Part shown: in pieces, positions 15,067 to 59,642 of the stretch
Numbering within the stretch: the first letter of the stretch is position 1
Layout of the letters: every line of letters starts with the position of its first letter
DNA from: a bacterium CG_4_9_14_3_um_filter_65_15
GTDB lineage: Bacteria; Krumholzibacteriota; Krumholzibacteriia; LZORAL124-64-63
Direction of reading: 5' to 3'
NCBI GenBank assembly: GCA_002790835.1
Contig: PFVX01000059.1
Coordinates: 723 to 64,722 of the forward strand
DNA: 64,000 nucleotides
Made by a program: the position numbers and the translations under genes
Notes under the pieces: generated by a model
The model's database searches: none
Told to the model about the DNA's origin: nothing
Seen by the model: only the letters and a program-made list of their open reading frames with translations

Positions 15067-15881
15067 CCGCCGATGATCACCATGAGTCGGTGGGTGACAC
15101 CCAGAACCGGATGGACGCGATGCGAAGTCAGGACCAGAACCGGCCCGCGAGCGGCGCAGATGCCGGGACCCATGGCGCCGGAAACGGCGTCCAGGCTCAA
15201 GGTGAATGCCAACCCCCTCCCGTTGCCCAGCGCCAGTTCGACCCCCGTTCGCGGCCCTCCGCCGCGGCCTCGGTCCACCGCAACCGCCAGGCTCCGCGCG
15301 CCGGAGGTCAACACCACCGCCGCCAAGGGTCGGGGGCCCGGGTCAGAATCTCCACCCGACCCGCTTCCTCGGGGAGACCAGAACACTTCCCCATGCAGGG
15401 TTGAGTCGTTGCTCCAGTGGAAACTCTGGAAACCGTGCCACCCCCACCACATGCTCTGCGGCAGAGTTTGACCGTCAACTGAACCGCCTCGCCTCTCCAC
15501 CAGCCAACCGAACCCGAAGCGACCTTCCCAGGCAATCTCCGCGCCCCAGGACGACTCCTGGACCGGCCAGTTGCCCACGGTTTCCCGGTTCACTCTGACC
15601 CACCCCCTCCCGGATCCCAGCCTCCGGGAGGCGCCGGCAGCCAAAAATCGAACCGGCAGATCGGGCAGGCCGTACAGCAGGGATCCCCCAGCCGCCAACC
15701 AAGTCCCTTGCTTCCGGATCGCGGGTTCTGCGCCATCGGGTGTAATGAGCGGGGCAAGTTGGACCGGGGAATGCAGCCACCCGGCGGTCAGATGACCGGC
15801 CCGGGTCGCCGCCGGATGCAGCCAAACCAACAGCAGCAGGATCGGCCAACGTTGGGTAGAGGTTCTGCCGAGGCGGGTCAT
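15045..15881 (-). CDS. Putative small outer-membrane beta-barrel protein
   Basis: ATG 15881 overlaps the upstream stop (ATGA); signal-like N-terminus; amphipathic strands; HPVLGVTHRL near the C-terminus. Confidence 0.55.
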   Translation of the reverse strand: MTRLGRTSTQRWPILLLLVWLHPAATRAGHLTAGWLHSPVQLAPLITPDGAEPAIRKQGTWLAAGGSLLYGLPDLPVRFLAAGASRRLGSGRGWVRVNRETVGNWPVQESSWGAEIAWEGRFGFGWLVERRGGSVDGQTLPQSMWWGWHGFQSFHWSNDSTLHGEVFWSPRGSGSGGDSDPGPRPLAAVVLTSGARSLAVAVDRGRGGGPRTGVELALGNGRGLAFTLSLDAVSGAMGPGICAARGPVLVLTSHRVHPVLGVTHRLMVIIGGWQNCRL

Positions 15882-17596
15882 CGGACACCCACCACCGTGC
15901 GGGCGCGGGACAGGGTTTGCCCCCGATCCGATTGCAGCTCTCCGACGACGATGTACCCACCCGCCGCCACCTGCATGCCGGCATCGTCGTCGCCGAACCA
16001 GTGGCACAGCCGGCTTCCGGGCCCGGCCCCATCGCCACCGACCGTCCGCACCTGCTCACCCCAAAGATTGAATACCCGCAGGGTGAATCCCGCAGCCGTC
16101 GCCGGAATTGTGACCGCCACTTCCAGGACCAGCGGCCCCTGCCGCCGGTCCAGCACGCGGTCGGGGAGGAACATCCAATCCCCGCCCCGGGCAGCGGATA
16201 TCTCCCGCGGGGCACAGCCGGGCGATCCGCCCGACCCGGTGGCGCAGGGTCTCCAGAATGACTCCGTTCCTCCCCCGGGAAGGGCCAGCGATGTCCGTTC
16301 CACCGATCGCCCATCCTCCGGCAGGGGAACTCCCCCATCGCCCCCTCCGGATGCCAGCAGCTTCAGATGGTCGATCACTCCCAGGCTGTCGGCCAGCCAG
16401 AGGCGGTCACAATAATCCCGTGTCTGCGGAGGGGAGTTGTTCAGGGCTGGCCAAGCCGCCAGTTCGACCAGCAAAGGAGCCTCAGGGCAGGCCTCGAGCA
16501 GAGGGTCCCCGTGGGCCCGGTTTTCCCGGTACCACGCACCGAGGGAAACCGTATCGGCGGCCAGGACGACGAGTTCTCCCGGCCCCAGCCATTGGGGAGA
16601 CAAGTCCCTCCACCCGCCGTCCTCATCCCGGATCCGATATTCGGCGAGGGACACGGGTTGCGGTCCCGTGCAAGCCAGTTCGATCCATTCCCCCTCACCC
16701 TGGTCCGGGGCCGCCTGCACCTCATTGAGTTCCAGTTCTCCGCGTCCCACCTGCAATCGGCCCAGGGTCACCACCAGGGAATCGGGATCCCCTCCGGTCG
16801 GGGCGATCACCCTCAGAGCCGGACGCCCGGGACCGTCCGGCTGGATTTCCCAGCGCACCAGCCGCTTGGCGTCTGCGGGAAACCCCGCCACCGAAGCCTC
16901 GAAACGTCGCCCGCCGAGATCAAGCAACAGCACTTCGGTCTGCAGATCCCTCAGACCGGTGTTGTGGAGATCGGCGCTGACCGTGACCCGGTCATGCGGC
17001 CGTGCGGTGGGGGGTTCGCAGCCCCAGTCCTGGATCTCCAGAGCATACTGGGGAAAGTTGGTGAAGCCGGGTGACGCCGCAGCCGCCAGGAAATCCGCTC
17101 CGTTGTCACCGCTGTCCCTGCCGTCGGGTCTGCGGGCCAGCGACAGGCCACTGGCGGCGGCCACCGGACTACCCTCAAAGAAATCCGGTCCGGTCAGCTC
17201 GCCGTAACCCACCAGGTCCAGAACCTCGCTCCCGATGACGAGGCGCACCGCATCGGGACCGTTCTGCAGGGAAAGCCGAACCTGACCGTCTCCTGCGGAG
17301 GGACCCGGCCAATTGGTGTCAACGAGGAGAAAGTAACCGAGCGCGCAGATGCTGTCGGTACCCGTGGCGGTCCACCGGGTTTGCCAGGAAGGCTGGAGAT
17401 CGGCTCCGTTGGCGAACTGGAATTCCACACCCGCCAGGGATACCGCATGGTCTGCCGTGTTGAACAGCTCGACGAATTCGTGTCCGGCGTCGCTCCCCGG
17501 AGGATCGGGCAGGAGCTCGTTGATGACGATCCCGGCCCTGGCCGCGCCACAAACCGACATCCAACACAACAGCAACCAGCGGCACGTCCGGCGCAA
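15878..17596 (-). CDS. Lamin-tail-domain (LTD) protein with C-terminal FlgD-Ig/T9SS-like domain
   Basis: Two LTD repeats (IVINELLPDPPGSDAGHEFVELFN; LELNEVQAAPDQGEGEWIEL) and a CTD (LRVFNLWGEQVRT...WFGDDDAGMQVAAGGYIV...VGVR). Confidence 0.8.
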   Translation of the reverse strand: MRRTCRWLLLCWMSVCGAARAGIVINELLPDPPGSDAGHEFVELFNTADHAVSLAGVEFQFANGADLQPSWQTRWTATGTDSICALGYFLLVDTNWPGPSAGDGQVRLSLQNGPDAVRLVIGSEVLDLVGYGELTGPDFFEGSPVAAASGLSLARRPDGRDSGDNGADFLAAAASPGFTNFPQYALEIQDWGCEPPTARPHDRVTVSADLHNTGLRDLQTEVLLLDLGGRRFEASVAGFPADAKRLVRWEIQPDGPGRPALRVIAPTGGDPDSLVVTLGRLQVGRGELELNEVQAAPDQGEGEWIELACTGPQPVSLAEYRIRDEDGGWRDLSPQWLGPGELVVLAADTVSLGAWYRENRAHGDPLLEACPEAPLLVELAAWPALNNSPPQTRDYCDRLWLADSLGVIDHLKLLASGGGDGGVPLPEDGRSVERTSLALPGGGTESFWRPCATGSGGSPGCAPREISAARGGDWMFLPDRVLDRRQGPLVLEVAVTIPATAAGFTLRVFNLWGEQVRTVGGDGAGPGSRLCHWFGDDDAGMQVAAGGYIVVGELQSDRGQTLSRARTVVGVR

Positions 17597-17642
17597 GAGG
17601 GACCAATAGTTTCCGGGAGAGGACCAGAATACTCGTCAGTGA

Positions 17643-19943: not shown

Positions 19944-19949
19944 GACGAA

Positions 19950-22807: not shown

Positions 22808-25141
22808 TTAGCGAATAACTATCAGCCTTCCCCAGTATTCCTCGCGCTGGGGCATGACCACCTTGTAAATGTAGACGCCGGGGGCCACGGACTGCTGATC
22901 GCGGTTTTCCGTGTTCCAGTAGATTTGACCGCCCTTCATCAATTCGGGGCCGAGCTCCATGACATCGTCACCAGCGGCGGTGAAAACCTGAATCCGGGAA
23001 TCCTGCGGCAGGTTGGTAAAGACCACCGAACGGCCTTCAAAGCCGGGAAGCCCGGCGCCCGGCCGCAAGGGATTGGGAAATACATAGATCTCATCCCCCC
23101 CGGTATCCGGGGCCGCTCCCAGGTTGACCTGAACGAAGCTCTGGTTCCCGGTACCGTTGAAGAGGGAATTTTCGTCGCCCTGCCACCGCGGAGAGAAAAG
23201 CATGGTGTTGGTGGTGTTCTCCACCGTGGTCAGGGCGGTATTCCCGTAATCAAAAGTCGTCACGGAATAGTAGTAGGAGAAACCGTTGTAGACTTCGGAA
23301 TCGAAGAATCGCAAGGTATCGGATCCGGCGTCGGTCCCCGAGAAACACGCTGCGCGTTTTTCCTTGAAACACCGGGGAATGGGCAGAATGTCCGGACCAC
23401 CGCAGTAACCTTCCTGGCAGGATTCGGGGTTCACCAGGTCGTAGAGTCCGATCAATACCGGATGCTCCGGGTCGGCGGAAGGGGAACGCCAGACGGCCCA
23501 ACCCTGGAAGGTCTGACACACCAAACGAAATTCATCGTTAGGTTCGACAGAACCGCTACCGAAGGACATCATCAAACCCAAATCCAGGCTCCGCAATTCG
23601 GGCGAAGTACCCGAGGTATAGGTGTCGGATAAGTTCAAAACCGAACCGGCCTGATACACACCGCCGGCATAGGTTGCCAGCAGGATGTCGCCGTCAGCGG
23701 TTCCTGCGTTCCTGAAATTCAGCGCCGTGGCCAATTCGGGGGCCCCGTCCCACCGCTCCCAGGTGGCGCCATAATCCAGGCTGCGCAGGAGATCGAAGCC
23801 ATCCTCCAGGGCATACAGCACCTCGGGATTGGCCGAATCGGCCAGAAGACGCACTCGCGTCACTTTTGCGAGATTACTCTGGCCCGCCAAATTCGTTTGC
23901 TGCCAGGTCAGGCCCCCATCAGTGGTCCGGTATAGACCTTTCTGGGCAACCGCCATGACGATGACATCAGGATCCGCGTCACTGGTGACGCAGGAAAGCG
24001 CGTTGTTGATCCACTCCCCGGTCACGTCGGGATTCGCCACCAGAAGGTCCCCGTAAAGGTCGTGCCAGGTGGCGCCGTCATCGGTGCTCTCAAAGACTCC
24101 GTGAAACTGAAGGCTGGCCAGGAGGCGGTTCGGACGCACGGGGTCGCGATACAGGTCATTGACCACCGGATCGACCAGAACCTGAATCTCCGCATCCAGG
24201 TTTTCGAGGACCTGAAGGGGAACCCGGGAGAAACCCGCACCGCCGTCGTTTGAGCGGAAAAAGCCGAAATTATCCACGTGGACAAAGATGCTGTTGCCTG
24301 ACCAGACCAGGGAACGCACAGGGAACTGATTGGGCATCGGCTCGAATCCCGGATCCAATTGAGTCGTCAACTGGGTAAAACTCGCCCCGCCGTCATGGGT
24401 GAGAAAGAGACCTTTGGTCTTCGTCCCAACCAGAAAAGTGGCCGGATCAACCGGCGAAGTGGCGAGCCGGGTGACAAGGGTGGAACTGTTGAAGGTCCCC
24501 TCCGCGATGCGGGTCCAGCCGGCCCCCTGGTTCATGAAGAGCCCCACCGGGCCGATCTCAAAAGTCGAGCCATTCGTCAAAGCTGCGATCAGATCCCCAT
24601 CGGGGTTTTCCGCGAAGGCAACCACATTGACCTGCCTCCACGTCAGAGGAAGACCCTGGTTGAGTTGGCTCCACTCCTGGCTCTGGGCATCGTAGCGCCA
24701 GAAGCCGCCGTTGTTGGCCAGATTCAGCACCCCTTCGAAGGCACCGTTCCGGGAAGACCCCTGGTGAGTCCAGGTAAAGCGCAAGGGCGCACCCTGGGCT
24801 GATCCGATAACCCCGGAATTCAGGGTGGTGAAGCGGAAAACCCTGTCCACCTGGTCACCGAAACCACCGGAGACATCCACCGGGAAGCCAAGCCCGGTCG
24901 TATCGCGCAGAGTGAAGCAGGTGGCTTCGGAAATATCCAGGTTCGGCCAGCTGATCACCATTCCCAGGGGTTCGGTGGTCTGGAAATCCAGATGCACGGA
25001 TTTCGGGGAAATCAGGTAGAGGGAGTCTGCTGCACAGGCACTTTCCGGAGTCTGGGCCCCTGCCGTGGACGCCACGGTCAGCAAAACGCCGACGGCCAGG
25101 CACAGCCCGGACCGCTGGAAAATGGCGCTTCCGATCTTCAT
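22808..25141 (-). CDS. Secreted Asp-box (BNR) beta-propeller protein with FN3-like segment and T9SS-like CTD
   Basis: Signal peptide; five Asp boxes (THDGGASF, SNDGGAGF, STDDGATW, TTDGGLTW, SLDYGATW); FQGWAVWRS...NGFSYYYSVTTFD; CTD IYVFPNP...VAPGVYIYKV...LIVIR. Confidence 0.8.
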   Translation of the reverse strand: MKIGSAIFQRSGLCLAVGVLLTVASTAGAQTPESACAADSLYLISPKSVHLDFQTTEPLGMVISWPNLDISEATCFTLRDTTGLGFPVDVSGGFGDQVDRVFRFTTLNSGVIGSAQGAPLRFTWTHQGSSRNGAFEGVLNLANNGGFWRYDAQSQEWSQLNQGLPLTWRQVNVVAFAENPDGDLIAALTNGSTFEIGPVGLFMNQGAGWTRIAEGTFNSSTLVTRLATSPVDPATFLVGTKTKGLFLTHDGGASFTQLTTQLDPGFEPMPNQFPVRSLVWSGNSIFVHVDNFGFFRSNDGGAGFSRVPLQVLENLDAEIQVLVDPVVNDLYRDPVRPNRLLASLQFHGVFESTDDGATWHDLYGDLLVANPDVTGEWINNALSCVTSDADPDVIVMAVAQKGLYRTTDGGLTWQQTNLAGQSNLAKVTRVRLLADSANPEVLYALEDGFDLLRSLDYGATWERWDGAPELATALNFRNAGTADGDILLATYAGGVYQAGSVLNLSDTYTSGTSPELRSLDLGLMMSFGSGSVEPNDEFRLVCQTFQGWAVWRSPSADPEHPVLIGLYDLVNPESCQEGYCGGPDILPIPRCFKEKRAACFSGTDAGSDTLRFFDSEVYNGFSYYYSVTTFDYGNTALTTVENTTNTMLFSPRWQGDENSLFNGTGNQSFVQVNLGAAPDTGGDEIYVFPNPLRPGAGLPGFEGRSVVFTNLPQDSRIQVFTAAGDDVMELGPELMKGGQIYWNTENRDQQSVAPGVYIYKVVMPQREEYWGRLIVIR

Positions 25142-25216
25142 GCACACTGCCTTTCGCAAGAAAATCCGGCGGCCCGCGGACACCCCGCAAACGGGGTGTC
25201 CCGGCAGCCGAGTCGC

Positions 25217-27670
25217 TTACTGGTTAAGGTCGATCCCGAAATAACTCAACACCCACCGAATGGTCTTCTTGGTCCCCGCTTCGTCGAACCGGTAGGGATC
25301 AAAGCCCCAGTAGACATCGGCACGCGCGACACCCGGTTTTTCCGCAGCCATCTTGTAGGAAAAATACCCGAACGTCCGCCCGTTGGTCCAGGCACTGGAC
25401 CTTGGGTGTCCATTGTAATCGGTCAAGGCCTGGGTGCCGCACTCGGTAACCAATTCGTCGGTGCTGTACGTGCTGGTCGGCCATTCCGCATCGCCCTGCC
25501 GCCACCGGAGTTCCCGGAGCCAGTCGAAACGGGCGATTCCCTTGAACATGGGCTCGATGCATCGGCCGTTCGGAGCTTCCGAGGAGTCGCAATTCTGCAG
25601 GATGATGCCCGTGCGCTCGCTGATGCTCTCGTTGACGAACTCGTCCTTCGTGAACTTGAAGTTCAAGGTGCCGAGCTTGAGCGTGTCCGCATCCACCGCA
25701 GAGTAATCGTGCCAGTCGATATCCGGATTGGTCCACATGGTGTCAGGAATCACCCCCGGGCCGATGCCGTGGTTGAGCTTGAAGGCCGGATCGAGCGCCA
25801 GTCCCTTCAGGCCGACACACGCCGACTTCCGGTCCTGTCCCGCCGAAACCGGTCTGCCGTAGATGTACTTGCTGGCCGGAGCGGTCCAGTCCAGGGCCGT
25901 GATCCCGGCGGTGGCATAGGGATACATGAGCGGCCCCCGATACACCTCGGTCCCGTCAGGAAGCGTGCGGGTACCGAAACCGATGGTGTAATCCGTGCCT
26001 CCGACGAGCAGGGTGGTCTCCTTGGAATCGAAGATGACGGGCACGGAATAGCGGGCGAATGACGGCAGGAAGGATTCCATGCTGGCCTGCCCCACCAGGA
26101 AGAAATTCCCTCCCCGAAACTGATACGGCGTCAACCAGACAAACCTGTCCTGGTTGTTCACGGGTCGGAACTTCTTGAACATCAACTGGGAATCGTTGTA
26201 CTCGGCATAGCAGAGAACAGCGCTGTATTCGACGATATCGGAATACTCGACCTGGTCACTGTCCTCCCTCCAATCCTTGGACCAATCGATATCGGCGACA
26301 CCACCCTGGATGTCGTCGAGGAACCGCCAATAGGCATTGCGGAACACTTCCTTGTTTCGGGAAACATTCTGCCGGTCCCGCCAGTTGTCGACATACTCAT
26401 CGATCACCTGGTCCACGATCAGCAATGGCCGCTGGAAAGCCGGATCCACGTAGGGAATGACCTGGATATTCCGGGTGACCAGCAGAACATAGTCCGAATC
26501 GTCCACAACCCGCAGATAGAAGGTATGGGTACCCTCGGTGAAGACCCGCTCGGTATCGAACAGGTTTTGCCGCGAAGTACCAGCCGGAACAGCCCATTGT
26601 TGATCGGCGGGATCGTCGGGGTTGGTCAGATCCCAGCCGTGCCGGTAGGAAACGATTTCCCCGCCGTAGGAACTGGCATCGGCCGACCATACGAAATTGA
26701 TGGGCTGTCCCGAGGCCACTTCGGCGTCCTGGTAGCCCGTGTTGAGGAAGGGCTCGTCCAGCACCAGTGCGGGCTTGAAGACACCCTGAACGGTCACATG
26801 GGCGACTTCCTGTTGCCAGCCCAGCCCCACACTGACGGCCCCGGCTGTGTCCTGGACCTGCACGGCGAAGAAGTAGTAGGCTCGGTTTTCCTGATTCCGG
26901 AACTTGACCTTGCGCTTATCGATATCGGCGCTGTAGGGCCGCCAATCCGACCAGTCGGGGTCGTCGAAGGATATGAGTCCCGGGGTATGTTCGTAAGCGT
27001 ACCTGGTCGTGACGAATTCACCCGCAGAGTCCAGGGCCTTTTTCCAGAGGTAGCGGACCTTGGTGGGGGTCTTGAGGTCGAAATCCGGGTCTTCTCCCAC
27101 CCAGCCGATATTGACCGTGGACGGAACCTTCTTGGGGTCCCTGGAACTCGTAAGATTCTTGTAAGCGACCTGGCAGGTCGGCACCAACGTCGTGGAAGTG
27201 AAGGAGATGTAGGCGGGTGAAGGGTCCTTCGCCCCATCTTCATCCACGGCGCGGATAAACAGGGAATGGGAGCGGAAACTGCGCGGGTCGGCCTCGGGAT
27301 CACCCGGGAAACCGGGTTGGTCCGCCAGCAGGATGAAAACCGAATCGGTTGCGGTCGTGAAGCGCCAGGGGTGCAGAATCGCCCCGGTCAGAGGGTCCAC
27401 GGTCAGAGTGTCGCGGGGGGAGATTCCGTCCAGCCCGTTGTCACTGACCTTCCACTCATACCCCTTGAGCTTCCCGTCCGGGTCCGAGCCGGTCCAGAAG
27501 AACTCAACCGCGAAACCGGCCTCGAGCAGGGTGGGCGGCTGGGCGACCATGCGCGTGTCGGGCCTGGCATTGGGAATTTTCACACCGCCGAGCTTGGTGT
27601 CAGCCGAACAGGCCACGAGCCCGGCCATCAGCACTCCCCAGCAAACCACCTGCAGAATGCGCCTCATCAT
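25217..27670 (-). CDS. Large lipoprotein B (Ig/FN3-like repeats plus GAT-like C-terminal domain)
   Basis: Lipobox LVA-C; NARPDT...FWTGSDPDG...AVDEDGAKDPSPA module; RBS GAGGAG before ATG 27670. Confidence 0.75.
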   Translation of the reverse strand: MMRRILQVVCWGVLMAGLVACSADTKLGGVKIPNARPDTRMVAQPPTLLEAGFAVEFFWTGSDPDGKLKGYEWKVSDNGLDGISPRDTLTVDPLTGAILHPWRFTTATDSVFILLADQPGFPGDPEADPRSFRSHSLFIRAVDEDGAKDPSPAYISFTSTTLVPTCQVAYKNLTSSRDPKKVPSTVNIGWVGEDPDFDLKTPTKVRYLWKKALDSAGEFVTTRYAYEHTPGLISFDDPDWSDWRPYSADIDKRKVKFRNQENRAYYFFAVQVQDTAGAVSVGLGWQQEVAHVTVQGVFKPALVLDEPFLNTGYQDAEVASGQPINFVWSADASSYGGEIVSYRHGWDLTNPDDPADQQWAVPAGTSRQNLFDTERVFTEGTHTFYLRVVDDSDYVLLVTRNIQVIPYVDPAFQRPLLIVDQVIDEYVDNWRDRQNVSRNKEVFRNAYWRFLDDIQGGVADIDWSKDWREDSDQVEYSDIVEYSAVLCYAEYNDSQLMFKKFRPVNNQDRFVWLTPYQFRGGNFFLVGQASMESFLPSFARYSVPVIFDSKETTLLVGGTDYTIGFGTRTLPDGTEVYRGPLMYPYATAGITALDWTAPASKYIYGRPVSAGQDRKSACVGLKGLALDPAFKLNHGIGPGVIPDTMWTNPDIDWHDYSAVDADTLKLGTLNFKFTKDEFVNESISERTGIILQNCDSSEAPNGRCIEPMFKGIARFDWLRELRWRQGDAEWPTSTYSTDELVTECGTQALTDYNGHPRSSAWTNGRTFGYFSYKMAAEKPGVARADVYWGFDPYRFDEAGTKKTIRWVLSYFGIDLNQ

Positions 27671-27709
27671 GACGTTTCTCCTCGATCCATTGGTCGCCAA
27701 ACTCTATGG

Positions 27710-30330: not shown

Positions 30331-33300
30331 TTACTTCACCATGGTGATCTTGTTGACCTGGACCTCATCACCGTAGCGAGCTTCGTAGAAGTACACGCCG
30401 GAAGCAACAGAGGAACCAGAGTTGCTGGTGCCGTTCCAGTCCACGGACTGGGTACCGGCATCCATCACGTCGTCGACCAGGGTCCGGACGAGTTCACCGC
30501 GAATGTTGAAGATCTTCACCGTCACATGACCACGCTTGGGCATGTTGTAGGAGACCGTAACCTTCGGGTTGAACGGGTTCGGGAAAGCCTTGGTCGCGAA
30601 CTGCGCTCCAGGAATCACGCCCGAGGGGGTACCACCGGAAGTCTGGCCAAACCAGTCCAGAACATCCGACAGAACCTGCGCGCGCGCGGTCAACGGAGCA
30701 GCGGCCTGGGCGCCGCAAGTCGGGTCGTCGTAGATGAACATGAAGTCATACGGCGTACTGACGAGCTTGCTGCCGTTGGCCCGAACGTTGGCAGTGGCAG
30801 CACTGTAGGTGTACTGACCAGCAACGCAACCGGGAGCCAGGAATTCGGCCAACTGCGTGGCGCCGGCACGCGGAGTCACGGCGTCGAACGTGTTGATTCC
30901 AAAGCAACCACCGTAGGCAACCCAGGAAGACTGATTCACGATGACACCGTTGCCTGCCAGAGCGGAGACGACGGGAGTGGCCTGGTTGTCGATCAACGGA
31001 AGCAGATTGGTGCTCACGAGATCCAGACCCATGTAGTCGTTCAAGAACGTCAGGGTGTTGGTCCCACTACCGTCGAGATCGTTGGCCAGCTCATCACCGG
31101 TCAGGAACATACCCTTGATCGGGTCGCCAGGAGCGGGCAGATCCAACCACGATGACACGAGGTCAACGTCGTTGCCATAGTCGCTGCTGGAGGCGAAATC
31201 GCCGTTGCTGATGGTGAACTTGGACAGATCGCCGGAGGTGTACAGCATGGTGTTGTAGTTGGCGATCTGACTGATGGAGGCACGACCACCGAGACCATTA
31301 CCCACACCGGAGCTCGGGCCCGTGGTGTAGTAAATGTCGTAGTCGCTGCCGGGAACGTAGCCCAGCTGATCCAAAGCGCTGTACCATTCCTGCTCTCCGC
31401 CACGGCGGGCGAAGTCGTTCCAGAACAACACCTCAGGCTGGGTGTAGTTGCCAGGAGTACCCGTGATCGACGGCAGGCCGTGCACGATGAAGTCCTGGTT
31501 GTAGGCCAGAGGATGGCTGAAATCACCGTAACCGGAGATGTCGCCGGGGATGTGGACGGACTTGATGTCGCCGGCCACATCGTCACTGGCTTCGATGTAG
31601 TAGTGAAGCACGTCACCGGGGTACAAGAAGCCGGTGTCGGGCAGGTCGAAGGCCCACACGTTCGGAGCAACGATGCCATTCACGTTACGAGCGGAGTCGC
31701 CAGCGGAAACGCCGGTCGTCGCGGTACCGAAGATGCTCGTGCGGTAAGCGTTGAACGCGGGGTTCGGCTGCATGGTCCAGTGCAGGATCGGAGGACCGTT
31801 CAGAACGGCACCGGTACGAACCAGCTTGACCGTGCAGGTGATCGAGTCGGCCGGATCGTTGGCCAGATCGGACGGCACGTTGGTGTTGTTGGCCGCATCG
31901 AACCGCACACTCAGGATCGAAGGATCCGTCATGTCGATAAGACCGACCTCAGGGAAGTTGTCCTGAGCCATGTCGATAACACGGTAGGTCACACCAGGAC
32001 CGGCGAAGGGGAAGACCTTCAGGTTCACGTTGTCGAAGTAGGGAGCAGGATAGCCGTCGAGGCCGGCGAAGTACTGCACACAACCCATACGGATCTGCAC
32101 CCTCTCACGAGCGGGCTGCACCCAGGACGTGGCGTCGTTAATAGGGCGGATGTAGTCGGGGCCACCGTAGTACACATAGCCCGTGCTGTTCCAACCCTGG
32201 GTCTCGATGTCCTCTCCCACGAGTGCGGAGCGCACGCCGAAGAAGTAGAAGATACCCGGGCTGTCAGGAGAGAAGTCCTCGTGACGGTAGACGTCGAAGC
32301 CGAACCAGAGACCGTCGTAGGTGGCGTTGGGCCACGTCATCTCGGGAGACTTGACGTAGTTGTTGATGGCCCCACCGGGGGACATGCCACCGGTCGGAGT
32401 CACAATCGCACCACCGGGGCCGTAGCACCAGTTGACGCACTGGCTGCCGCCGGTGCCGGGAACGACCACGCCGTCATCGATGAAGGCGACCTGGTTCGTA
32501 CCGTTGGTGTTACAGGGATCGATGTCGGACAGACCGCACCAGATCTGGGCGAAGTCGCCGACGGCGATCGGAGCCACCGTCGTCCAGTTACCCATACCGG
32601 TTTCGAAGTCGTCGAAGGTGCTGTAATTGTTGGCACCGTTGACCACGGAGACGGTCACGTCGTCCAGAGTCGCGGCGCCGAAACCACCATAGCAGTAACC
32701 TTCGGCCGAGTAGGCACCGTCAGAGAAGAAACGGAAATCGATGACGATTTCGTTGCCGTTGATGTAATCCCCGGGCAGGTAGGTGATAATCCCGGAGAAA
32801 GCCTCGGCCACGCCACCGGCACTGTCGCCGTTGAAGGTAAGGGCGTTCTGGTAGCCCAGAAGACCCGTGACCTGGTAGCTCAGGTAGACGTAGTCGTAGT
32901 CCTGCTCCACCTGATAAAGGATGTTACCGCTGACGGTGACCGTGGAGCTGGAAGAATTATCGAGGACGGAATAACGCCACTCGACGAGGTCGTTCCAGTC
33001 ATCCCCGTAACCGGCGAAGTTGGCTCCGCAGGCGGGGAAGTAGTCGCCGCACCACAGGCCGTTGCCGGTGATACCCAGGGTATCGAAGCCGGCGGGCGCG
33101 AACACATGCCAGTGGGAAGACGCGGCGTTACCGGACGTCAAATCGACCGAGCTCCAGCCGGCGGGCAGACGGTCAACGCCACAAACGGCATTTTCGAAGT
33201 CTCCCTGATAGAGGCCGCCTGGCCCCATCAGCTGAATGGTATCGCCGGCGGCCTTAGCGCCATAAGCGTTACTGCCGGATTGCCAGGCGTTGACATCGCT

Positions 33301-33387
33301 AGTGAAGCTGGGGATATCCCCGGCCACACTGCTCATCGCCATACCCAGCACCAGGGCGACACAAGCAAACATGGTGAATTTCTTCAT
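30331..33387 (-). CDS. 1018-aa secreted Cys-containing protein with FlgD-Ig/T9SS type A-like CTD (candidate major surface protein)
   Basis: Signal peptide MKKFTMFACVALVLGMAMSSVA; CTD KAFPNPFNP...IFNIRGELVRTL...WNG...VASGVYFY...KITMVK; GAT-like domain before the CTD. Confidence 0.85.
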   Translation of the reverse strand: MKKFTMFACVALVLGMAMSSVAGDIPSFTSDVNAWQSGSNAYGAKAAGDTIQLMGPGGLYQGDFENAVCGVDRLPAGWSSVDLTSGNAASSHWHVFAPAGFDTLGITGNGLWCGDYFPACGANFAGYGDDWNDLVEWRYSVLDNSSSSTVTVSGNILYQVEQDYDYVYLSYQVTGLLGYQNALTFNGDSAGGVAEAFSGIITYLPGDYINGNEIVIDFRFFSDGAYSAEGYCYGGFGAATLDDVTVSVVNGANNYSTFDDFETGMGNWTTVAPIAVGDFAQIWCGLSDIDPCNTNGTNQVAFIDDGVVVPGTGGSQCVNWCYGPGGAIVTPTGGMSPGGAINNYVKSPEMTWPNATYDGLWFGFDVYRHEDFSPDSPGIFYFFGVRSALVGEDIETQGWNSTGYVYYGGPDYIRPINDATSWVQPARERVQIRMGCVQYFAGLDGYPAPYFDNVNLKVFPFAGPGVTYRVIDMAQDNFPEVGLIDMTDPSILSVRFDAANNTNVPSDLANDPADSITCTVKLVRTGAVLNGPPILHWTMQPNPAFNAYRTSIFGTATTGVSAGDSARNVNGIVAPNVWAFDLPDTGFLYPGDVLHYYIEASDDVAGDIKSVHIPGDISGYGDFSHPLAYNQDFIVHGLPSITGTPGNYTQPEVLFWNDFARRGGEQEWYSALDQLGYVPGSDYDIYYTTGPSSGVGNGLGGRASISQIANYNTMLYTSGDLSKFTISNGDFASSSDYGNDVDLVSSWLDLPAPGDPIKGMFLTGDELANDLDGSGTNTLTFLNDYMGLDLVSTNLLPLIDNQATPVVSALAGNGVIVNQSSWVAYGGCFGINTFDAVTPRAGATQLAEFLAPGCVAGQYTYSAATANVRANGSKLVSTPYDFMFIYDDPTCGAQAAAPLTARAQVLSDVLDWFGQTSGGTPSGVIPGAQFATKAFPNPFNPKVTVSYNMPKRGHVTVKIFNIRGELVRTLVDDVMDAGTQSVDWNGTSNSGSSVASGVYFYEARYGDEVQVNKITMVK

Positions 33388-33729
33388 TTTTTTCCCCCCA
33401 TCATCGGCACGAAGCCGATACATGGTTAGGCGAACGATTGAATGCACACGCCAGATTCAGGCGAATTAGCGGTACATTGACGGGCGACAAATAAGTTCCC
33501 AGAGACTGCACACGCAGAGCGAACTGCGCTTCACGAGCGAGACATCCTCCTCTGATGCAGACCCATTGGTGACGAGCGAACAAGCGTCAAGTGATTTCAG
33601 CGAACTGCAAGTGGAAAACAGGGACAGCGCACCTCAAGGGATGGGAACGGATTGTCTTTGAGTCGCACCATTACCTTACCCGAACCACGCTGGGGAGTCA
33701 ATAGTCTTTCGGAAAAAAATATCATGCCT

Positions 33730-41158: not shown

Positions 41159-41174
41159 GACCTCCTCTTTTCCG

Positions 41175-53820: not shown

Positions 53821-53904
53821 CCTTGATCAGCAGTCAGGTGAAGGGCGACTGGGGGCCGAGTTTCCGTGGGGACAGAAACCACAGCCTGACAGAGAACTAT
53901 CGAT

Positions 53905-53933
53905 ACCGTACAACCGATATCCGATACTGTCAA
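53905..53933 (-). promoter_or_regulatory. Sigma70-type promoter (TTGACA-N17-TACGGT) upstream of htrA/degP
   Basis: Hexamers read directly; the -35 overlaps the upstream stop codon and is preceded by CCGG. Confidence 0.65.
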
Positions 53934-54388
53934 CCGGAATTATCCCGATTCATATCATCCTCAATACCCTCACCCGCCTCGGTCAATTCCACCGGCGTCG
54001 CCTCGACTGGGGCCGGATCATGGGCATGCGCGGGAGCAGCTTGGTCCTGCAGATCATCAACCGTGGCTGCCCGGTCCCGGTGCTGGCGGGCCCCGTGCTG
54101 GCTCCGGATCTCGCCGATCTCCTCCTCCTTGGCCTGCAACTCCTTCTCGAGGGCATTCAGCCTCTCCACGATGGCCGTCACACCGGGATCTCCCAGGGTC
54201 GCTGTCCGCCCCTCCTCCAGAGCCGTGTAGACCAAGTTCCCCAGCTCACTGAACTGACGCTCGATATCGCGACTGATACCGAACTTGTCATAGCGCAGCG
54301 AGGTCACCTTGGCCACTTCGACCGTTTTGTCGGTGGTCACGGTGTACCACTCCATCAGGTTCCTTTTGACATCGTCCCACATGGGCAT
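53930..54388 (-). CDS. Hypothetical coiled-coil protein
   Basis: RBS AAGGAGG; heptad pattern (IERQFSELGNLVY...LEKELQAKEEEI) and a low-complexity acidic tail. Confidence 0.75.
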   Translation of the reverse strand: MPMWDDVKRNLMEWYTVTTDKTVEVAKVTSLRYDKFGISRDIERQFSELGNLVYTALEEGRTATLGDPGVTAIVERLNALEKELQAKEEEIGEIRSQHGARQHRDRAATVDDLQDQAAPAHAHDPAPVEATPVELTEAGEGIEDDMNRDNSG

Positions 54389-54417
54389 AGCGTCCTCCTT
54401 CGGACAGGGGTTTGGAG

Positions 54418-54445
54418 TTGCCCGCTACCGGATCTGGCTTACAAT
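54418..54445 (+). promoter_or_regulatory. Sigma70-type promoter (TTGCCC-N16-TACAAT) for lpxH
   Basis: Hexamers in the divergent gap; the -10 ends 8 nt before the ATG. Confidence 0.5.
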
Positions 54446-54453
54446 GGGTTCCC

Positions 54454-55245
54454 ATGAGCGCCAAACGACAACCCACGGCCGTCATCCTGGCCGACGCCCA
54501 TTTCCACCTTCGACCTGATGCCGCCGAGAGCCGGCGCATCGAGCGATTCCTGGAGCTGCTCGAGGCCATCCACGGCGTGGACCATCTGATCCTGCTCGGT
54601 GATATCTTCGACTTCTGGTTCGACTATCCGCATTTCCGTCTCGACGGCTACGATGAGATCCTCCAGGGCCTGGACGGGGTCCGAGCCTCCGGAACCACTG
54701 TCCATTTTGTCGGGGGCAACCACGACATCTGGGCGGCCGGTTACCTCCATCGGCGCTTCGGCAGTGAGCCCGACGGCATGCCGTTGGATCTCCAACTGGG
54801 GGATCTGCGGGTCCGTTTCGATCACGGTGACGGCCTGCTCAGCCACGATTGGCTCTATCAAACCTTCCGGACCATTGTCCGCACGCGGGCCGGAATCCTC
54901 CTGGCCAAGTCCCTGCACCCCGAGATCCTGTTCGCCCTCAGCACCTGGCTCAGCGGCCACAGCCGCAACGCCTCGCGGGACGAGGGTCGGGAAATCGAAG
55001 CCAAGGCCTCCGCCTGGCTCGGCCGCCAGCAGGACGCCCCCTGGGACCTCATCGTCATCGGGCACGTCCACCACCGTTTCACGACCACCGTCCAGGGGCG
55101 GACCATGGCCGCCCCCACGGGCTGGTTCAACCGCCTGGACCTGGGCGTAATCCAGGACGGAAAATTCGCCCTGCTCGATTTCGACCAGGACACCCTGCCG
55201 GATTTCGGATCCCGCGAAACGACCCTACCAGGTCATTCCCAATGA
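54454..55245 (+). CDS. lpxH: UDP-2,3-diacylglucosamine hydrolase-like metallophosphoesterase
   Basis: ADAHF, LGDIFDFW, GGNHD, HGDG, GHVH motifs; the only plus-strand gene; overlaps the porV 3' end by 21 bp. Confidence 0.8.
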   Translation: MSAKRQPTAVILADAHFHLRPDAAESRRIERFLELLEAIHGVDHLILLGDIFDFWFDYPHFRLDGYDEILQGLDGVRASGTTVHFVGGNHDIWAAGYLHRRFGSEPDGMPLDLQLGDLRVRFDHGDGLLSHDWLYQTFRTIVRTRAGILLAKSLHPEILFALSTWLSGHSRNASRDEGREIEAKASAWLGRQQDAPWDLIVIGHVHHRFTTTVQGRTMAAPTGWFNRLDLGVIQDGKFALLDFDQDTLPDFGSRETTLPGHSQ

Positions 55246-56163
55246 GATCTTGTTCCCGTCCTCGAAGCCCTCGGTGGTCATGTCCTCGTACGCATAATCC
55301 AACCGCAGGTTCCTCAAACGGAAGCCCACTCCCGCGGTGATCCCCTGGGATTCGTAGTTGATGCGCGACCCCAACCGCAGGGCCAGCTCGGGAATGAGGT
55401 GCAGCTCGGTACCGACATGCGCCTTTGCCGTGGTGTCATTGGGCATGAAGAGTTCGCCCGCCAAAGTGAGTTTCCCCTGAAAAACCCGGGCCACCGGAAC
55501 GTAGGCGGCGCCAATCCGCACGGCCGTCGGCAAATCGAAAGGCTCATCCCGCAGGTTCATCTGGCCGCCGATATTGGTGGCCGAAGCGGCGAAGACCAGC
55601 CCCTCGATCAAGGCCTGGTGCGTGAGGAAGAAATCGAAGGCGAAGCCGCTGTCGTTGTAGAAGTCGATCTTCTCGTAAATCATCTTCGCACCGATGCCGA
55701 ACGCAAAGCGATCTCCCAAGGGGTGGGCATAGGATACTCCCAGGGCCACATCGTAAGGCTTGAAGGTCCCCTCGAAAACATCGACACCCGATTCCAGGGT
55801 CTTGCGATCGATCTCGTCCGAGTAGAATCCCATGAATGTCACGCCCAGAACGCCCTCACCGACCCGATGAGCCACCCCCGCGGCTTCCTGGCTGAACAGC
55901 CCGAGGTATCGGTCGTGCTGCAGGACCAGCTCCGTTTCGAAATCGGCAAATACGTTGTTGGCGGGATTCCAGAAGAGAGCCGTCCCGCCGCTGCTGGAGG
56001 CAACTCCCGTCTCCCCCATGCCGGCCTCTCGCGCGCCGACACCCATCCTCAGGGAAAGCAACCCCGCATCACCAGGGTTGCCGGCCAAGGCAGGCAACGC
56101 AATTGTGATCAGGGTCAAAACCAGGAACAACCCGAGGGTGGCCGACAACCGATTGCGATTCAT
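55225..56163 (-). CDS. PorV/PorQ family outer-membrane beta-barrel
   Basis: Signal peptide; LSLRMGVGAREAGMGE...ALFWNPA signature; barrel strands; C-terminal Trp (ISLGMTW). Confidence 0.85.
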   Translation of the reverse strand: MNRNRLSATLGLFLVLTLITIALPALAGNPGDAGLLSLRMGVGAREAGMGETGVASSSGGTALFWNPANNVFADFETELVLQHDRYLGLFSQEAAGVAHRVGEGVLGVTFMGFYSDEIDRKTLESGVDVFEGTFKPYDVALGVSYAHPLGDRFAFGIGAKMIYEKIDFYNDSGFAFDFFLTHQALIEGLVFAASATNIGGQMNLRDEPFDLPTAVRIGAAYVPVARVFQGKLTLAGELFMPNDTTAKAHVGTELHLIPELALRLGSRINYESQGITAGVGFRLRNLRLDYAYEDMTTEGFEDGNKISLGMTW

Positions 56164-56201
56164 GGGATCCCTTTCCGCGCGCGCCTCACTGGGCGCCGTT
56201 T

Positions 56202-59200
56202 CTATCTCACGACTGTGAATGATACGACACTGTGGGTGGTTTCGCCTCCGGCATCGACGACCAGCCTGCTGATATACATGCCGGTCGCCACACCGTCGAG
56301 CGGGACGATCAGGGTGAAGGGATCGCCACTCACCACGTCATTCCAGGCGGTGGTGGTGACCAACTCACCTTCAAGGTTGTAGATGAACGCCCGAGCCCGG
56401 CCCGGCGAACGGGCTTCCCCGCGGACATACAGGGGTCCCTCGCCCAGGGGGTTGGGGTAAAACGTATGGCTGCCGAGAACCATACCGGAACCGATCGAGC
56501 CGGGGCTCTGAACGATCCAGGCTTCGGCGTCGTAATCCCCGTTGCGCCAGATACCGCCGCCGGACATGGGCCAGGCGGCCGTTTCCGCAGCGACATCCCG
56601 CCACATCATGACCGTGCTGGAGTAATCTCCGTCCAGGCTCACCCCGTCCGCGCCGGGTTCGGTAATACGCAGGAAGGAACCCGCCGCCACAAGGTCCAGC
56701 TCCCCATCCCCAACCAGGTCTCCCAAGGCAGGCGTAACCGCTCCGGTTCCGGGTCCGGACACGGGCCAACCTTGGATTTCCTCACCCCGTTCCTTCAGCG
56801 CGATAAGGCTACCGTCCTCCAGCGGGAAGATGGTCTGGGGCCGGGAGGAATCCACTCCCCTCAACCAGGCGACCAGGGGGCCTCCACCGCCCACACCGGT
56901 GCCCATATCGCGCGGGCGGCGTGGCCAGCCATCGGACCAGTCGCCTCCGTGCCCGATTCCACCCAGCAAATCCGGTCCCACAAAGTACCCGCCGGGCGCC
57001 ATGGCCGATTGGACCGTTACCGCGGGGCCCCACTCATGGATCGACCCCACCTTCACCATGGCGGCATTGAAGAACAGGGTTGCACCGGAACCGTCCCGCC
57101 CAGCCACCTGGACGAAACGCAATTCCTCCTCGCCCTCCTTCTGCGCCAGGCCCCAGGTTAGCGGCCATGGGCCCGGAATTACCGGCAAGGCAATACTCCC
57201 CCGCAGGGGTGCATCATTCGGGGCGTCCCGGTCGTAGGCCACCAGTTCAAGAGAGGATTCGCCGGTCAAGCTGTCGTGGAGCGCGCAGAGAAACCACTGC
57301 CCGAAAGCCAGGGTCGGTGGGGCGCCGACCGCGCCCGGTCCCAGTCCGACGGCAGGGAAAAACCCCGGCTGGCCCGAGGCGAACCCATCAAGCCAGGCAT
57401 GCCCGTTGTCCTCGTAGATCACGAAGGCCGCCACCGAAACGTCTTCCCGTGCCGGACCGAGTGGGTCACCGAGAGACGCCAGGATCGGAGGCACCCGACA
57501 AGTGGGCAAATCGGCCCAGAGCCCAAATCCGTCGCCTCCAGATACCAACGGCTGGCCGGTACCGTCGAAAGCATACAGCCCGTGGGGACCGGTCAGCACG
57601 ATCTCCGGCTTCGCATCGCCATCCAGATCACCCAGAGCAACAGGGAGATTCCAGTTCACCGCGGAGCCGTCTCGAGTCGAAACCAGCAGGGGTTCCACCG
57701 TCGCGGAGTCTCCATCGGCATCAAAATATTCCCGCAGGTTCCCGTCAAGGGCATAGACCTCCCCGGCATGACCGGCCAGGATGATCTCCGCCGGTGTTCC
57801 GCCTCCGTCCAGATCCCCGACCAGGACGTGACTGCCGCGCAGATCCACACCGGGCAAGGTCCGCTGCCGCGAGAACATGGGGCCTTGAGCGGCTTCCCCG
57901 ACCGACCCCACCGAGAACCTAATGGTGTCGGCGAAAGCGATTCCCCACAGGGTGTCGCCTTCTACGACCCCGAGGAAAACACCCTGTGAATCAGCAACCA
58001 CGTTGCTGAAATCCCTCAAGACGATTCCCGTGTAGGCGCCGGCTGCCGATTCGGTCCCCGGTCTGGTATAGGGGCCGAATTCGTGGTTGTCTTCACCCCG
58101 GAACGAGTCGTCGTCACCACCGTAGGTGTAGTCCGAAGGGATGGGCGAATCCAGGTCCTGGATGCCGTCGGCCTCCTCCAGGTCCACCGCCTTGTGCAGA
58201 GGGTCGGAGTTGAAGAGATTATCCTCCGCGTCGTACACAGCCCGGATCAATCCCTCGTCGACGTGCCAGATGTAGACACCACTCCCCGCTGCCGTCACAC
58301 CGCCGGGCCGGCCGGTGTTGGCGCTCATGGCAAAATCCCACTCGGCCCCCGCCAACGACTCGAGGGTGTCGGCCTGTGGGTCGTAAACCCCCGTCGGCCA
58401 ACCATTCCCGTAATCGGAGTTCGCATCGTAAAAGTCCGGGATTCCATCGTGGTTGAGGTCGCCCGGAAACGAAAACATCCCATTCCCGTCAGGGTCCTGG
58501 AGGCGATACTCCAGCAGCCAGTATTCCTGCCCGTTGATGTCCACCCGGGCAGACGCGGTCTCGGCAGAGGGGTTTTCCGCCGGGGTCAGGGCATAGGTGC
58601 CCGCAGCATGGGGATCCACCACCTGGGGATCCAACCAGCCGACCAGGTACTTGTTGAAAGCACAGGGTTCAGGGGGAATGAGGCCTGCTCCGGAGTAGAG
58701 TCCATACCCCATCAGCCCGAAAATCCCGATTCCCTGACTGTCGACATTCCCGGCCGGAGTAAAATCGGTCAACGAGAGCATGCCCAGCCGCAAACCCACC
58801 TCGAAACAATAGACGCCCAGGCTGCCCAAACGACCGAAGGGCTCCTGGTACTCGGTCTCAGGAAGAATCAACACCCGGTCGATCCCTGCGGCGCCCCCGA
58901 AGTCGTCCCCCGCCAACCATGGACTCTCCAGGATCGTATCCTGCACGGCGGAGGCGAAATCCCTCGGCCCCAGATACGTGCTGAAAATCTGTTCGGGATT
59001 AAGGCCATAGAAATCGGTCTCCCCACCGGCCCCGGCGTGGATCAGGATCAGGGTGTCGAAACCGCTGAAATCAACGACCGGGTCCAACGCCGCCACCACG
59101 TCCCGCGCCAGGGCAATCGACTGTTCGCCATATTGGGGGTGGTTTCCGTAGAATCCCATCGGGTGCTCCAGATTCACGACACCCGGAGCAATGGTGAAAT

Positions 59201-59642
59201 TCAGGGTAAAGCGATGTCCGCTGACGGAGCGGAAATACTCGGCGACATTGGTCAGCAGGTAATCGAAGTAGACCGAATCGTGGGCCGCGAAAGTGTTGGG
59301 GATTTCGAACTGGACGGGCTGAGGGAAATCTCCCGGGACAACTCCATAACGGCCCAGCAGCAGGCTGTCGCTGAAGTCGCAGAGCATGACCAGGGCGTTC
59401 AGCGCGGCCGGCGCCTTTTCTCCGGCCAGGCGACGCATCTGCAGGTCGCGGTCCCCTTCCGCCCTCAAGGGACGCGTGGCGACTTCGAGGTCGGCGGCGT
59501 GGCTGCGGATGCGGGTCAACAAAGCCTGGGGAATCGGCTCACCGGTCGAGGGATCCCCCACCGCGGAGGCTGCTTCCTGAATTCCGATCAGGGCCAGCAA
59601 TATCATGACCGGAATCAAACGGGTATTTCTGGGGTGGGGCAT
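56202..59642 (-). CDS. M6 (immune inhibitor A) family-like protein with degenerate zinc site, FG-GAP repeats and T9SS-like CTD
   Basis: ALVMLCDFSD, YFRSVSGHRF, ILIHAGAGGE, Met-turn GLMGYG, AFNKYLVGW; HExxH position reads FEVGL; GDLDG repeats; CTD FYPNP...IYNLEGELV...VATGMYI...FTVVR. Confidence 0.85.
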   Translation of the reverse strand: MPHPRNTRLIPVMILLALIGIQEAASAVGDPSTGEPIPQALLTRIRSHAADLEVATRPLRAEGDRDLQMRRLAGEKAPAALNALVMLCDFSDSLLLGRYGVVPGDFPQPVQFEIPNTFAAHDSVYFDYLLTNVAEYFRSVSGHRFTLNFTIAPGVVNLEHPMGFYGNHPQYGEQSIALARDVVAALDPVVDFSGFDTLILIHAGAGGETDFYGLNPEQIFSTYLGPRDFASAVQDTILESPWLAGDDFGGAAGIDRVLILPETEYQEPFGRLGSLGVYCFEVGLRLGMLSLTDFTPAGNVDSQGIGIFGLMGYGLYSGAGLIPPEPCAFNKYLVGWLDPQVVDPHAAGTYALTPAENPSAETASARVDINGQEYWLLEYRLQDPDGNGMFSFPGDLNHDGIPDFYDANSDYGNGWPTGVYDPQADTLESLAGAEWDFAMSANTGRPGGVTAAGSGVYIWHVDEGLIRAVYDAEDNLFNSDPLHKAVDLEEADGIQDLDSPIPSDYTYGGDDDSFRGEDNHEFGPYTRPGTESAAGAYTGIVLRDFSNVVADSQGVFLGVVEGDTLWGIAFADTIRFSVGSVGEAAQGPMFSRQRTLPGVDLRGSHVLVGDLDGGGTPAEIILAGHAGEVYALDGNLREYFDADGDSATVEPLLVSTRDGSAVNWNLPVALGDLDGDAKPEIVLTGPHGLYAFDGTGQPLVSGGDGFGLWADLPTCRVPPILASLGDPLGPAREDVSVAAFVIYEDNGHAWLDGFASGQPGFFPAVGLGPGAVGAPPTLAFGQWFLCALHDSLTGESSLELVAYDRDAPNDAPLRGSIALPVIPGPWPLTWGLAQKEGEEELRFVQVAGRDGSGATLFFNAAMVKVGSIHEWGPAVTVQSAMAPGGYFVGPDLLGGIGHGGDWSDGWPRRPRDMGTGVGGGGPLVAWLRGVDSSRPQTIFPLEDGSLIALKERGEEIQGWPVSGPGTGAVTPALGDLVGDGELDLVAAGSFLRITEPGADGVSLDGDYSSTVMMWRDVAAETAAWPMSGGGIWRNGDYDAEAWIVQSPGSIGSGMVLGSHTFYPNPLGEGPLYVRGEARSPGRARAFIYNLEGELVTTTAWNDVVSGDPFTLIVPLDGVATGMYISRLVVDAGGETTHSVVSFTVVR

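Follow-up and report, generated by a model that had tools for sequence, protein, structure and literature searches.

C-terminal domains and partner barrels of a candidate type IX-style export and attachment pathway in a Krumholzibacteriota genome

Within a 64,000-nucleotide stretch of a Krumholzibacteriota genome (hereafter the window; contig C64, G000:C64:723-64722; GC ~63%), four large exported proteins, named P1 to P4 here, end in motifs resembling the C-terminal domains (CTDs) of type IX secretion system (T9SS) substrates. The locus raises the question of which pathway would take these proteins across the outer membrane, and of whether they are its passing cargo or part of its conserved equipment. 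Krumholzibacteriota is an uncultured phylum within the FCB (Fibrobacteres-Chlorobi-Bacteroidetes) group, and the source genome (3.39 Mb, 94 contigs) is 95% complete. We propose, with a probability of about 0.62, that this genome encodes a type IX-style pathway of outer-membrane export and attachment that employs private barrels and whose motor escapes detection. The first-pass annotation of the window had called the lineage poorly characterised for T9SS, and the literature bears this out: our searches found no paper on T9SS in Krumholzibacteriota, and nothing relevant on T9SS in other FCB candidate phyla or on "PorV2".

C-terminal domains of the four exported proteins

All four proteins are encoded on the minus strand and have hydrophobic N-terminal segments that, read by eye, appear to be signal peptides. 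The motifs previously reported from their C-termini are present in the translations, as listed here:

15878-17596, minus strand: P1, 572 amino acids (aa), exported; two lamin-tail domains (PF00932 LTD, 71.3 bits); divergent type-A-family CTD at ~15881-16135, without PNP (LPDR in its place), with VFNLWG, VAAGGY and terminal GVR
22808-25183, minus strand: P2, 791 aa, exported; immunoglobulin (Ig)-like domain, seven-bladed BNR/sortilin-type propeller and FN3-like domain; P2-type CTD at ~22811-23101, with FPNP, VFTAAG, VAPGVY and terminal VIR
30331-33447, minus strand: P3, 1038 aa, exported; canonical type A CTD at ~30334-30588, with FPNP, IFNIRG, VASGVY and terminal MVK
56202-59642, minus strand: P4, 1146 aa, exported; M6-like pseudoprotease with an FG-GAP region; the most divergent CTD, at ~56205-56462, with YPNP, IYNLEG, VATGMY and terminal VVR

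The first-pass annotation had assigned these tails to the T9SS CTD families, and against the curated models the assignment holds directly for P3 alone. The P3 CTD (residues 955-1034 of 1038) exceeds the cut-offs of TIGR04183 (27.0 bits, cut-off 23), PF18962 (30.6, cut-off 27) and PF13860 (34.7, cut-off 27), whereas P2 (13.9 bits) and P4 (13.6 bits) fall below the TIGR04183 cut-off, and P1 gives 17.4 bits on PF13860 with no match to TIGR04183 or PF18962. For type B CTDs, none of the four proteins was listed by TIGR04131 at E-values up to 1, and PF13585 matched P3 only, at 22 bits (cut-off 27).

More sensitive comparisons join P1, P2 and P4 to the same family. A hidden Markov model (HMM) of the CTDs of this genome, iterated from the P3 tail over all six-frame open reading frames (ORFs), converged on 87 ORFs at the strict threshold, and on 91 when the threshold was relaxed. 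In 73 of the 87, no more than 12 residues separate the end of the domain from the C-terminus; CTD proteins would number ~91, or ~3% of the genes in the genome. This model recovers P3 (1.9e-30, 104.7 bits), P1 (4.6e-10, 39.3 bits) and P2 (1.2e-8), with P4 borderline (sequence E-value ~1e-3). Profile-profile alignment (hhalign) against 69 mainstream CTDs gave 97.4% (E-value 9.5e-12) for the CTDs of P4 orthologues and 98.5% (E-value 1.6e-15) for the P2-type CTDs. Because of these profile-profile results we regard the homology as settled: as judged from sequence, all four tails are homologous CTDs of the T9SS type A family, in several subtypes.

The subtypes themselves, which had been suggested from the motifs, are real, because both the scores and the groupings separate them. 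CTD scores are bimodal, with ~70 mainstream tails at 66-113 bits that end in K/R-x-x-L-V-K/R, and a divergent group at 15-65 bits comprising PorU, P1, P2, P4 and a few others. In an all-versus-all comparison, P2 clusters with four large proteins (x930, x688, b956 and b1109), the P4 CTD groups with one paralogue only, and P1 joins the mainstream CTDs at ~1e-10; we therefore distinguish mainstream CTDs (P3, with P1 as a diverged member), P2-type CTDs and P4/M6-type CTDs.

These domains might instead be generic FlgD-like Ig domains that serve in binding or adhesion and have no role in export, their motif likeness reflecting fold only, and the FlgD_ig model PF13860 does equal or beat the secretion-tail models for P1 and P3. 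We consider this highly improbable, given that in most of the ~91 proteins the domain is C-terminal, with a hydrophobic-hydrophobic-K/R tail as its end, that it co-occurs with SprA, PorU and PorV, and that P3 passes the curated T9SS tail models.

Export machinery in the genome and the phylum

No T9SS core genes had been noticed in the window, and scans of its main ORF calls with Pfam and NCBIfam agree, recovering no other recognisable T9SS genes, only unknowns and housekeeping families (ArgRS, TatC, SHMT, PurD, PPDK, GlyQS, RecO, MgtE, AspRS, HisRS, a sigma-70 factor, HtrA and a metallophosphoesterase); ten unknown window proteins had no family in the NCBIfam scan.

Elsewhere in the genome, three genes predicted to belong to a T9SS-type pathway were identified, in keeping with the pathway that the motifs had suggested. 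SprA is encoded on contig C68 (a frame of 2194-2222 aa; PF14349, 69.5 bits, cut-off 27) and the sortase PorU on contig C94 (C94:102069-105509; 472.9 bits, cut-off 420). Directly downstream of PorU lies a PorV-type barrel gene (PF19572, 57.5 bits; NF033709, 169.8 bits), whose product scores 108.7 bits as PorV and 42.1 bits as PorQ; it is assigned to PorV by best match and synteny only, the score being below the cut-off of 250. The same locus (C94:97436-106586, minus strand) includes, directly after PorU-PorV, an M6-like metalloprotease, a paralogue of P4 with an intact HEFGH motif and the rare P4-type CTD. This PorU-PorV-M6-like triple recurs in the other genomes L052, L057 and L067, and the protease, conserved with its intact HEFGH beside the sortase and the shuttle, is predicted to be active.

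For the remaining machinery we also drew on 81 high-quality Krumholzibacteriota genomes from 52 genera, each at least 90% complete. GldM was found neither in the source genome nor in any of the 81, and GldN in none of the 81. GldL was likewise not identified in the source genome, with no match above cut-off in the 81 and three matches of 17-21 bits in low-complexity regions. The GldK model reaches 90 bits in the source genome (cut-off 350), on the FGE-sulfatase half alone of a lipoprotein on contig C81. This lipoprotein was rejected as GldK, the match being partial and the model also matching genomes used as controls lacking T9SS (Bacillus, Caulobacter and Methanosarcina); its neighbours, read by eye, look like LemA-type, M48/HtpX-like peptidase and aminodeoxychorismate-synthase-like genes, none of them L/M/N-like. 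The best match of the PorP/SprF model TIGR03519 in the source genome is 15 bits (cut-off 90.55), on two PorV/PorQ-like barrels. A search for the canonical set thus returns SprA and PorU, no detectable PorL, PorM or PorN, a generic domain in place of PorK, and noise for PorP, which is not a complete canonical T9SS: GldL, GldM and GldN are undetected across the 81 genomes, the GldK match of the source genome is partial, and its PorP match is noise. PorZ is represented in the source genome by tail-level matches only. Across the phylum, SprA_N occurs in 69 of the 81 genomes, and the PorV/PorQ family in all 81, at 6-14 copies each. We describe the GldKLMN/PorKLMN motor-ring module as not detectable, not as absent; its true absence is a further step that we infer from these profile searches.

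The plainest alternative is an ordinary, complete T9SS, in which GldK, GldL, GldM and GldN are too divergent to recognise or lie in assembly gaps, P1 to P4 are plain type A cargo of a single PorV, and the extra barrels are unrelated porins. SprA, PorU and PorV were all found, all of the CTDs form one homologous network, the Gld models score above cut-off in no control genome, and SprA itself, at only ~70 bits, is strongly diverged from its Bacteroidota counterparts. Set against this, zero matches in 81 genomes that are at least 90% complete rule out assembly gaps, and PorU, at 473 bits, indicates that T9SS parts are not uniformly unrecognisable here. The GldK match is a generic FGE-sulfatase half that also appears in the controls and has no L/M/N-like neighbours, and the association of divergent CTDs with adjacent barrel genes, described below, is strong and recurs across families. 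We regard a complete T9SS as unlikely, though it is the most serious of the competing explanations.

Divergent C-terminal domain genes and their neighbouring barrels

Eight PorV/PorQ-type barrels are encoded in the source genome, and for six of these the gene immediately upstream encodes a large CTD protein: the window barrel after P4, PorV after PorU, and four more that follow b956, b1109, b797 and b2003, each of which has its own barrel. The 8 CTD proteins whose genes have a PorV/PorQ barrel gene no more than 100 nt away all belong to the low-scoring group, with a median score of 46.9 bits; the remaining 83 have a median of 89.9 bits (Mann-Whitney p = 7.5e-5). In 10 other genomes of the phylum, 16-17 of 20 barrel genes have immediately upstream, on the same strand, a large gene (840-1407 aa) with a low-scoring CTD (18-71 bits); many of these belong, as orthologues, to a small number of pair types, so that the independent events are fewer than the counts. 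Divergent-CTD genes systematically precede barrel genes. Two barrel genes in the window follow this arrangement:

55225-56163, minus strand: PorV/PorQ-family outer-membrane barrel, 312 aa, directly downstream of P4
15045-15881, minus strand: second outer-membrane barrel gene, encoding a 278-aa exported protein with a signal peptide; its ATG overlaps the P1 stop codon (ATGA)

The barrel after P4 had been read as a PorV. Its family stands (NF033709, 148.6 bits, cut-off 90, residues 35-311 against profile positions 4-325; PF19572, 26.6 bits; F. johnsoniae PorV, 6h3i_F, in the PDB at an E-value of 6.4e-6), but it is a PorQ-leaning paralogue, and the PorV orthologue is the barrel adjoining PorU on the other contig. 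All of its equivalog scores are below cut-off: 76.5 bits for PorQ (NF033711, cut-off 220), 62.3 for PorV (NF033710, cut-off 250) and 60.3 for PorV2. The barrel is 58-80% identical within Krumholzibacteriia and 38% identical to that of a Latescibacteria metagenome-assembled genome (MAG).

P4 matches NF052323 over residues 121-548 only (165.1 bits, cut-off 600) and TIGR03296 with 65.7 bits. Its M6 zinc site, HExxH, is replaced by F/Y-E/Q-x-G-x-R/H-L-G (residues ~280-290; 58773-58805, minus strand) in 19 of 19 orthologues, including that of the Latescibacteria MAG; because HExxH has gone from all 19, the predicted pseudoprotease state is ancient and conserved. Among the orthologues, conservation is 0.56 in the CTD and 0.61 in the M6 core, with 0.39 in the middle of the protein, which fits a tail whose function would be kept after export. 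The pair of P4 and its barrel is conserved phylum-wide; together with the wider neighbourhood, it is retained in 19 of 29 related loci, among them that of the Latescibacteria MAG at 38-39% identity, with partial contigs adding more.

The 278-aa protein downstream of P1 has no Pfam or NCBIfam match. Its family comprises 163 representatives at 50% identity, nearly all of 250-295 aa, with the C-terminal motif RTSHxVHPxLGxTHR. AlphaFold2, run with a 46-sequence alignment, confidently models it as a 14-stranded barrel (predicted local distance difference test (pLDDT) score 88.4, predicted template modelling (TM) score, pTM, 0.85). Foldseek against the PDB ranks OmpG first by E-value (6e-6, query TM-score 0.53) and PorV from the translocon of F. 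johnsoniae (6h3i_F) first by query TM-score (0.57); autotransporter and FapF barrels are among the matches. A sequence tie to PorV/PorQ was rejected as not significant (hhalign probability 8-11%, the register being kept over just the last 65 residues), and the next-best match of the family HMM in its own genome is a PorV/PorQ-like barrel at an E-value of 0.05. In four other contigs, a family member is preceded by a gene whose product carries a terminal P1-type CTD (45-54 bits), and the start/stop overlap of the P1-type and barrel genes is present wherever both ends are visible. The upstream partner of these barrels is an LTD+CTD protein. On the structural model, the 278-aa protein would represent a new, previously unannotated family of outer-membrane barrels, translationally coupled to P1.

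Could each protein and its barrel be instead a surface-display unit independent of SprA, after the manner of two-partner or autotransporter secretion, in which the CTD beta-sandwich docks on its own barrel and only the mainstream tags use the T9SS? Such units would be in keeping with passenger and barrel genes that are closely spaced or overlap, with the P4/M6-type CTD, which is scarcely recognisable as a T9SS tag, with the autotransporter and FapF barrels among the structural matches of the 278-aa protein, and with the 12 of 81 genomes in which SprA_N is undetectable while PorV/PorQ barrels occur in all 81. However, the CTDs of the pairs are homologous to mainstream T9SS tags, and a 14-stranded outer-membrane barrel is too narrow to pass a folded passenger of 570-1150 aa. 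Moreover, the founding pair, PorU-PorV, depends in Bacteroidota on the T9SS (PMC9143113 and references therein). We therefore judge such display units improbable, more so than a complete T9SS.

P2 has no adjoining barrel. It matches PF15902 with 38.5 bits, and its AlphaFold2 model (pLDDT 84.8) comprises an Ig-like domain, a single seven-bladed propeller, an FN3-like domain and a CTD sandwich. The PorZ model (NF052228, cut-off 260) matches the tail part only, at 36.8 bits versus 13.9 on TIGR04183, and the Foldseek matches of the P2 model are generic propellers, among which PorZ (5m11) ranks sixth with a TM-score of 0.28. These results are neutral on P2 as an equivalent of PorZ: the model match is tail-only, there is one propeller where PorZ has two, and the propeller matches are generic. 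Sequence searches of the PDB with P2 and P4 gave nothing useful. The orthologues of P2 fall into ~100 clusters (43-61% identity) whose annotation is hypothetical throughout.

Other proteins of 688-1109 aa with the P2-type CTD are encoded at C94:214828-217698, C91:488-3280, C90:27645-29711 and C18:40092-43421. By eye, their common features are an N-terminal NVTNxGxxGS block, runs of the acidic DxDGDG type and an FN3-like module; they have no family match outside the CTD, and two members directly precede PorV/PorQ barrels.

P1, P2 and P3 belong to a co-directional gene train (13483-35985, minus strand) that runs in the order GlyS, P3, two lipoproteins, P2, PPDK, a membrane protein of 740-766 aa, P1, the 278-aa barrel and a gene of ~530 aa. 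This order is the same in the distant genomes L069 and L070, where P2 is 47% and 38% identical and the P1 orthologues likewise follow PPDK and a gene of 740-760 aa; in the window the membrane protein has 766 aa and the last gene encodes a secreted protein of 527 aa. The four proteins had been described as different cargo: they do bear CTDs, but they are not a chance collection, since the train order (P1-P3) and the P4-barrel pair are conserved. P1 to P4 are conserved core genes of the phylum, not variable cargo, because the train order (P1-P3) is kept in the two distant genomes checked. Between P3 and P2 lie two paralogues with lipobox-like N-termini, similar to each other at an E-value of ~3e-7 and without a Pfam or NCBIfam match:

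25217-27700, minus strand: lipoprotein, 827 aa
27710-30118, minus strand: lipoprotein, 802 aa

By eye, an operon on contig C90 encodes a 516-aa lipoprotein, maybe similar to these two, between a P2-type CTD protein and a gene resembling a TonB-dependent receptor; this 516-aa lipoprotein lies upstream of a PorV/PorQ barrel. PPDK, an enzyme of central metabolism, stands amid the envelope genes of the train.

The barrel closest to PorV2 (NF052325, 134.5 bits) is encoded at a contig end (C70:155-8117, minus strand), and upstream of it are what look by eye like genes for a sigma-54-type activator and two HDOD proteins, together with FliA-like sigma factor and FlhF-like genes, a neighbourhood that is odd for a T9SS-type barrel. 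Taken together, the neighbours of the barrels on C70 and C90 appear by eye to encode a sigma-54-type regulator, HDOD proteins, FliA-like and FlhF-like products, a lipoprotein and a protein resembling a TonB-dependent receptor; no Exb-like gene was seen beside these barrels in that reading, which covered neighbours only, no genome-wide search having been made.

Elsewhere in the window, the longest ORF for PurD (GARS; 8023-10155, minus strand) has 710 aa, yet the GARS domains begin at residue 271, and PurD of the relative L072 has 444 aa; the true start of PurD is probably internal, or there is probably a separate small gene upstream of it.

A proposed pathway and its likeness to known systems

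We propose that P1 to P4 would reach the periplasm by Sec, as their N-terminal signal peptides, read by eye, suggest, and that the type-A-family CTD would then direct passage through the SprA translocon, as in Bacteroidota. P3, with a mainstream tag common to ~70 proteins of the genome, would probably rely on PorV as general shuttle and on PorU as sortase. The tags of P4 and P1 are diverged, and the gene of each protein is followed at tight or overlapping spacing by the gene for its own predicted 14-stranded barrel; each barrel may be devoted to carrying or anchoring the product of the gene before it. Such partnerships are modelled on the PorV-PorU, PorQ-PorZ and PorP/SprF-type B CTD pairs of Bacteroidota. 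P1 and P4 would then stay bound to the surface through an uncleaved CTD, and may be retained surface components, not released cargo, because each has a private barrel partner. The CTD of P2 appears to be of the subtype nearest that of PorZ and common to other barrel-linked proteins of the genome. The pathway would comprise SprA, PorU, PorV and the 6-14 PorV/PorQ paralogues of each genome, with GldKLMN/PorKLMN undetectable across the phylum.

Several observations weigh against a type IX-style pathway with private barrels. Secretion, CTD cleavage and barrel binding are all predicted from sequence, and P1, P2 and P4 score under the curated cut-offs for type A CTDs. P2 lacks an adjoining barrel and its PorZ likeness is generic, while the 278-aa barrel is placed by fold class only, with no significant sequence link to PorV/PorQ and with OmpG as its best Foldseek E-value. 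Gene adjacency is partly inherited in a strongly syntenic phylum and is to that extent not independent evidence. Twelve of the 81 genomes have no SprA_N match, and the Gld models, trained on Bacteroidota, could have missed very divergent homologues. If the motor were merely too divergent to detect, the finding would reduce to a routine T9SS inventory.

A bolder extension, which we hold to be doubtful, is that Krumholzibacteriota, and probably neighbours such as Latescibacteria, have a T9SS without the GldLM/GldKN motor and ring, in which 6-14 dedicated 14-stranded barrels replace the single-shuttle rule, each with one conserved partner through a co-diverged CTD. These barrels would comprise PorV/PorQ paralogues and the new 278-aa family. 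If so, the system could be an ancestral outer-membrane core that predates recruitment of the motor in Bacteroidota, and it would imply an undiscovered energy source.

The more cautious proposal of an export and attachment pathway with private barrels and an undetected motor also bears on how T9SS is understood. T9SS has been studied almost only in Bacteroidota, where the GldLM proton motor is held to be a requirement and a single shuttle, PorV, to serve all type A tags. A phylum with the pore, the sortase, a large tagged secretome and private barrels, and with no recognisable motor, would mark a minimal portable core and hint at another power source. It would also provide annotation rules for uncultured FCB lineages, namely pairs of a divergent CTD and a downstream barrel, and a new barrel family.

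To our knowledge, Bacteroidota genomes encode about two or three PorV/PorQ-family barrels, compared with 6-14 per Krumholzibacteriota genome. Like the PorU-PorV and PorZ-PorQ pairs of P. gingivalis, the pairs described here consist of a large surface protein with an atypical CTD and a 14-stranded barrel of the PorV/PorQ family: the porU-porV adjacency is reproduced on C94, the best equivalog of the window barrel is PorQ, and the P2-type CTDs match best to the PorZ tail. They differ in that the PorQ-like barrel partners an M6 pseudoprotease with FG-GAP and not the double-propeller PorZ, and in that binding and CTD retention are, for the pairs described here, predicted. P4 itself resembles the T9SS-dependent M6-like inactivated metalloproteases of NF052323 in its M6-like fold, lost HExxH and T9SS-type tail; at 165 versus 600 bits, and over the N-terminal half only, it is a distant relative, not a member.

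Compared with the canonical T9SS of Bacteroidota, SprA, PorU, PorV and numerous CTD proteins are common to both, whereas GldL, GldM and GldN were undetected in the 81 genomes, and in the source genome PorP was undetected and GldK was a generic domain. TXSScan found the complete T9SS only in Bacteroidetes (PMC4793230). CTD proteins with a PorV-family barrel outside Bacteroidota are the kind of content that existing annotation pipelines flag.

In F. johnsoniae, type B substrates depend on a cognate PorP/SprF barrel, which sets their final location (PMC12618676, PMC9143113), while all type A CTDs are held to use a single PorV (PMC12618676). The linking of diverged tag classes to barrels of their own is the same in both systems, although the tags described here are of the type A family and lack a TIGR04131 match, and the barrels are PorV/PorQ-family or new ones and not PorP/SprF. 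The private barrels of this pathway would bring type-A-family tags under the cognate-shuttle principle, so far demonstrated for type B tags only. What is new beside these known systems is a motor and ring that are undetectable phylum-wide, the expansion of PorV/PorQ, the link between divergent type-A-family tags and private barrels, and the coupling of P1 to a new barrel family.

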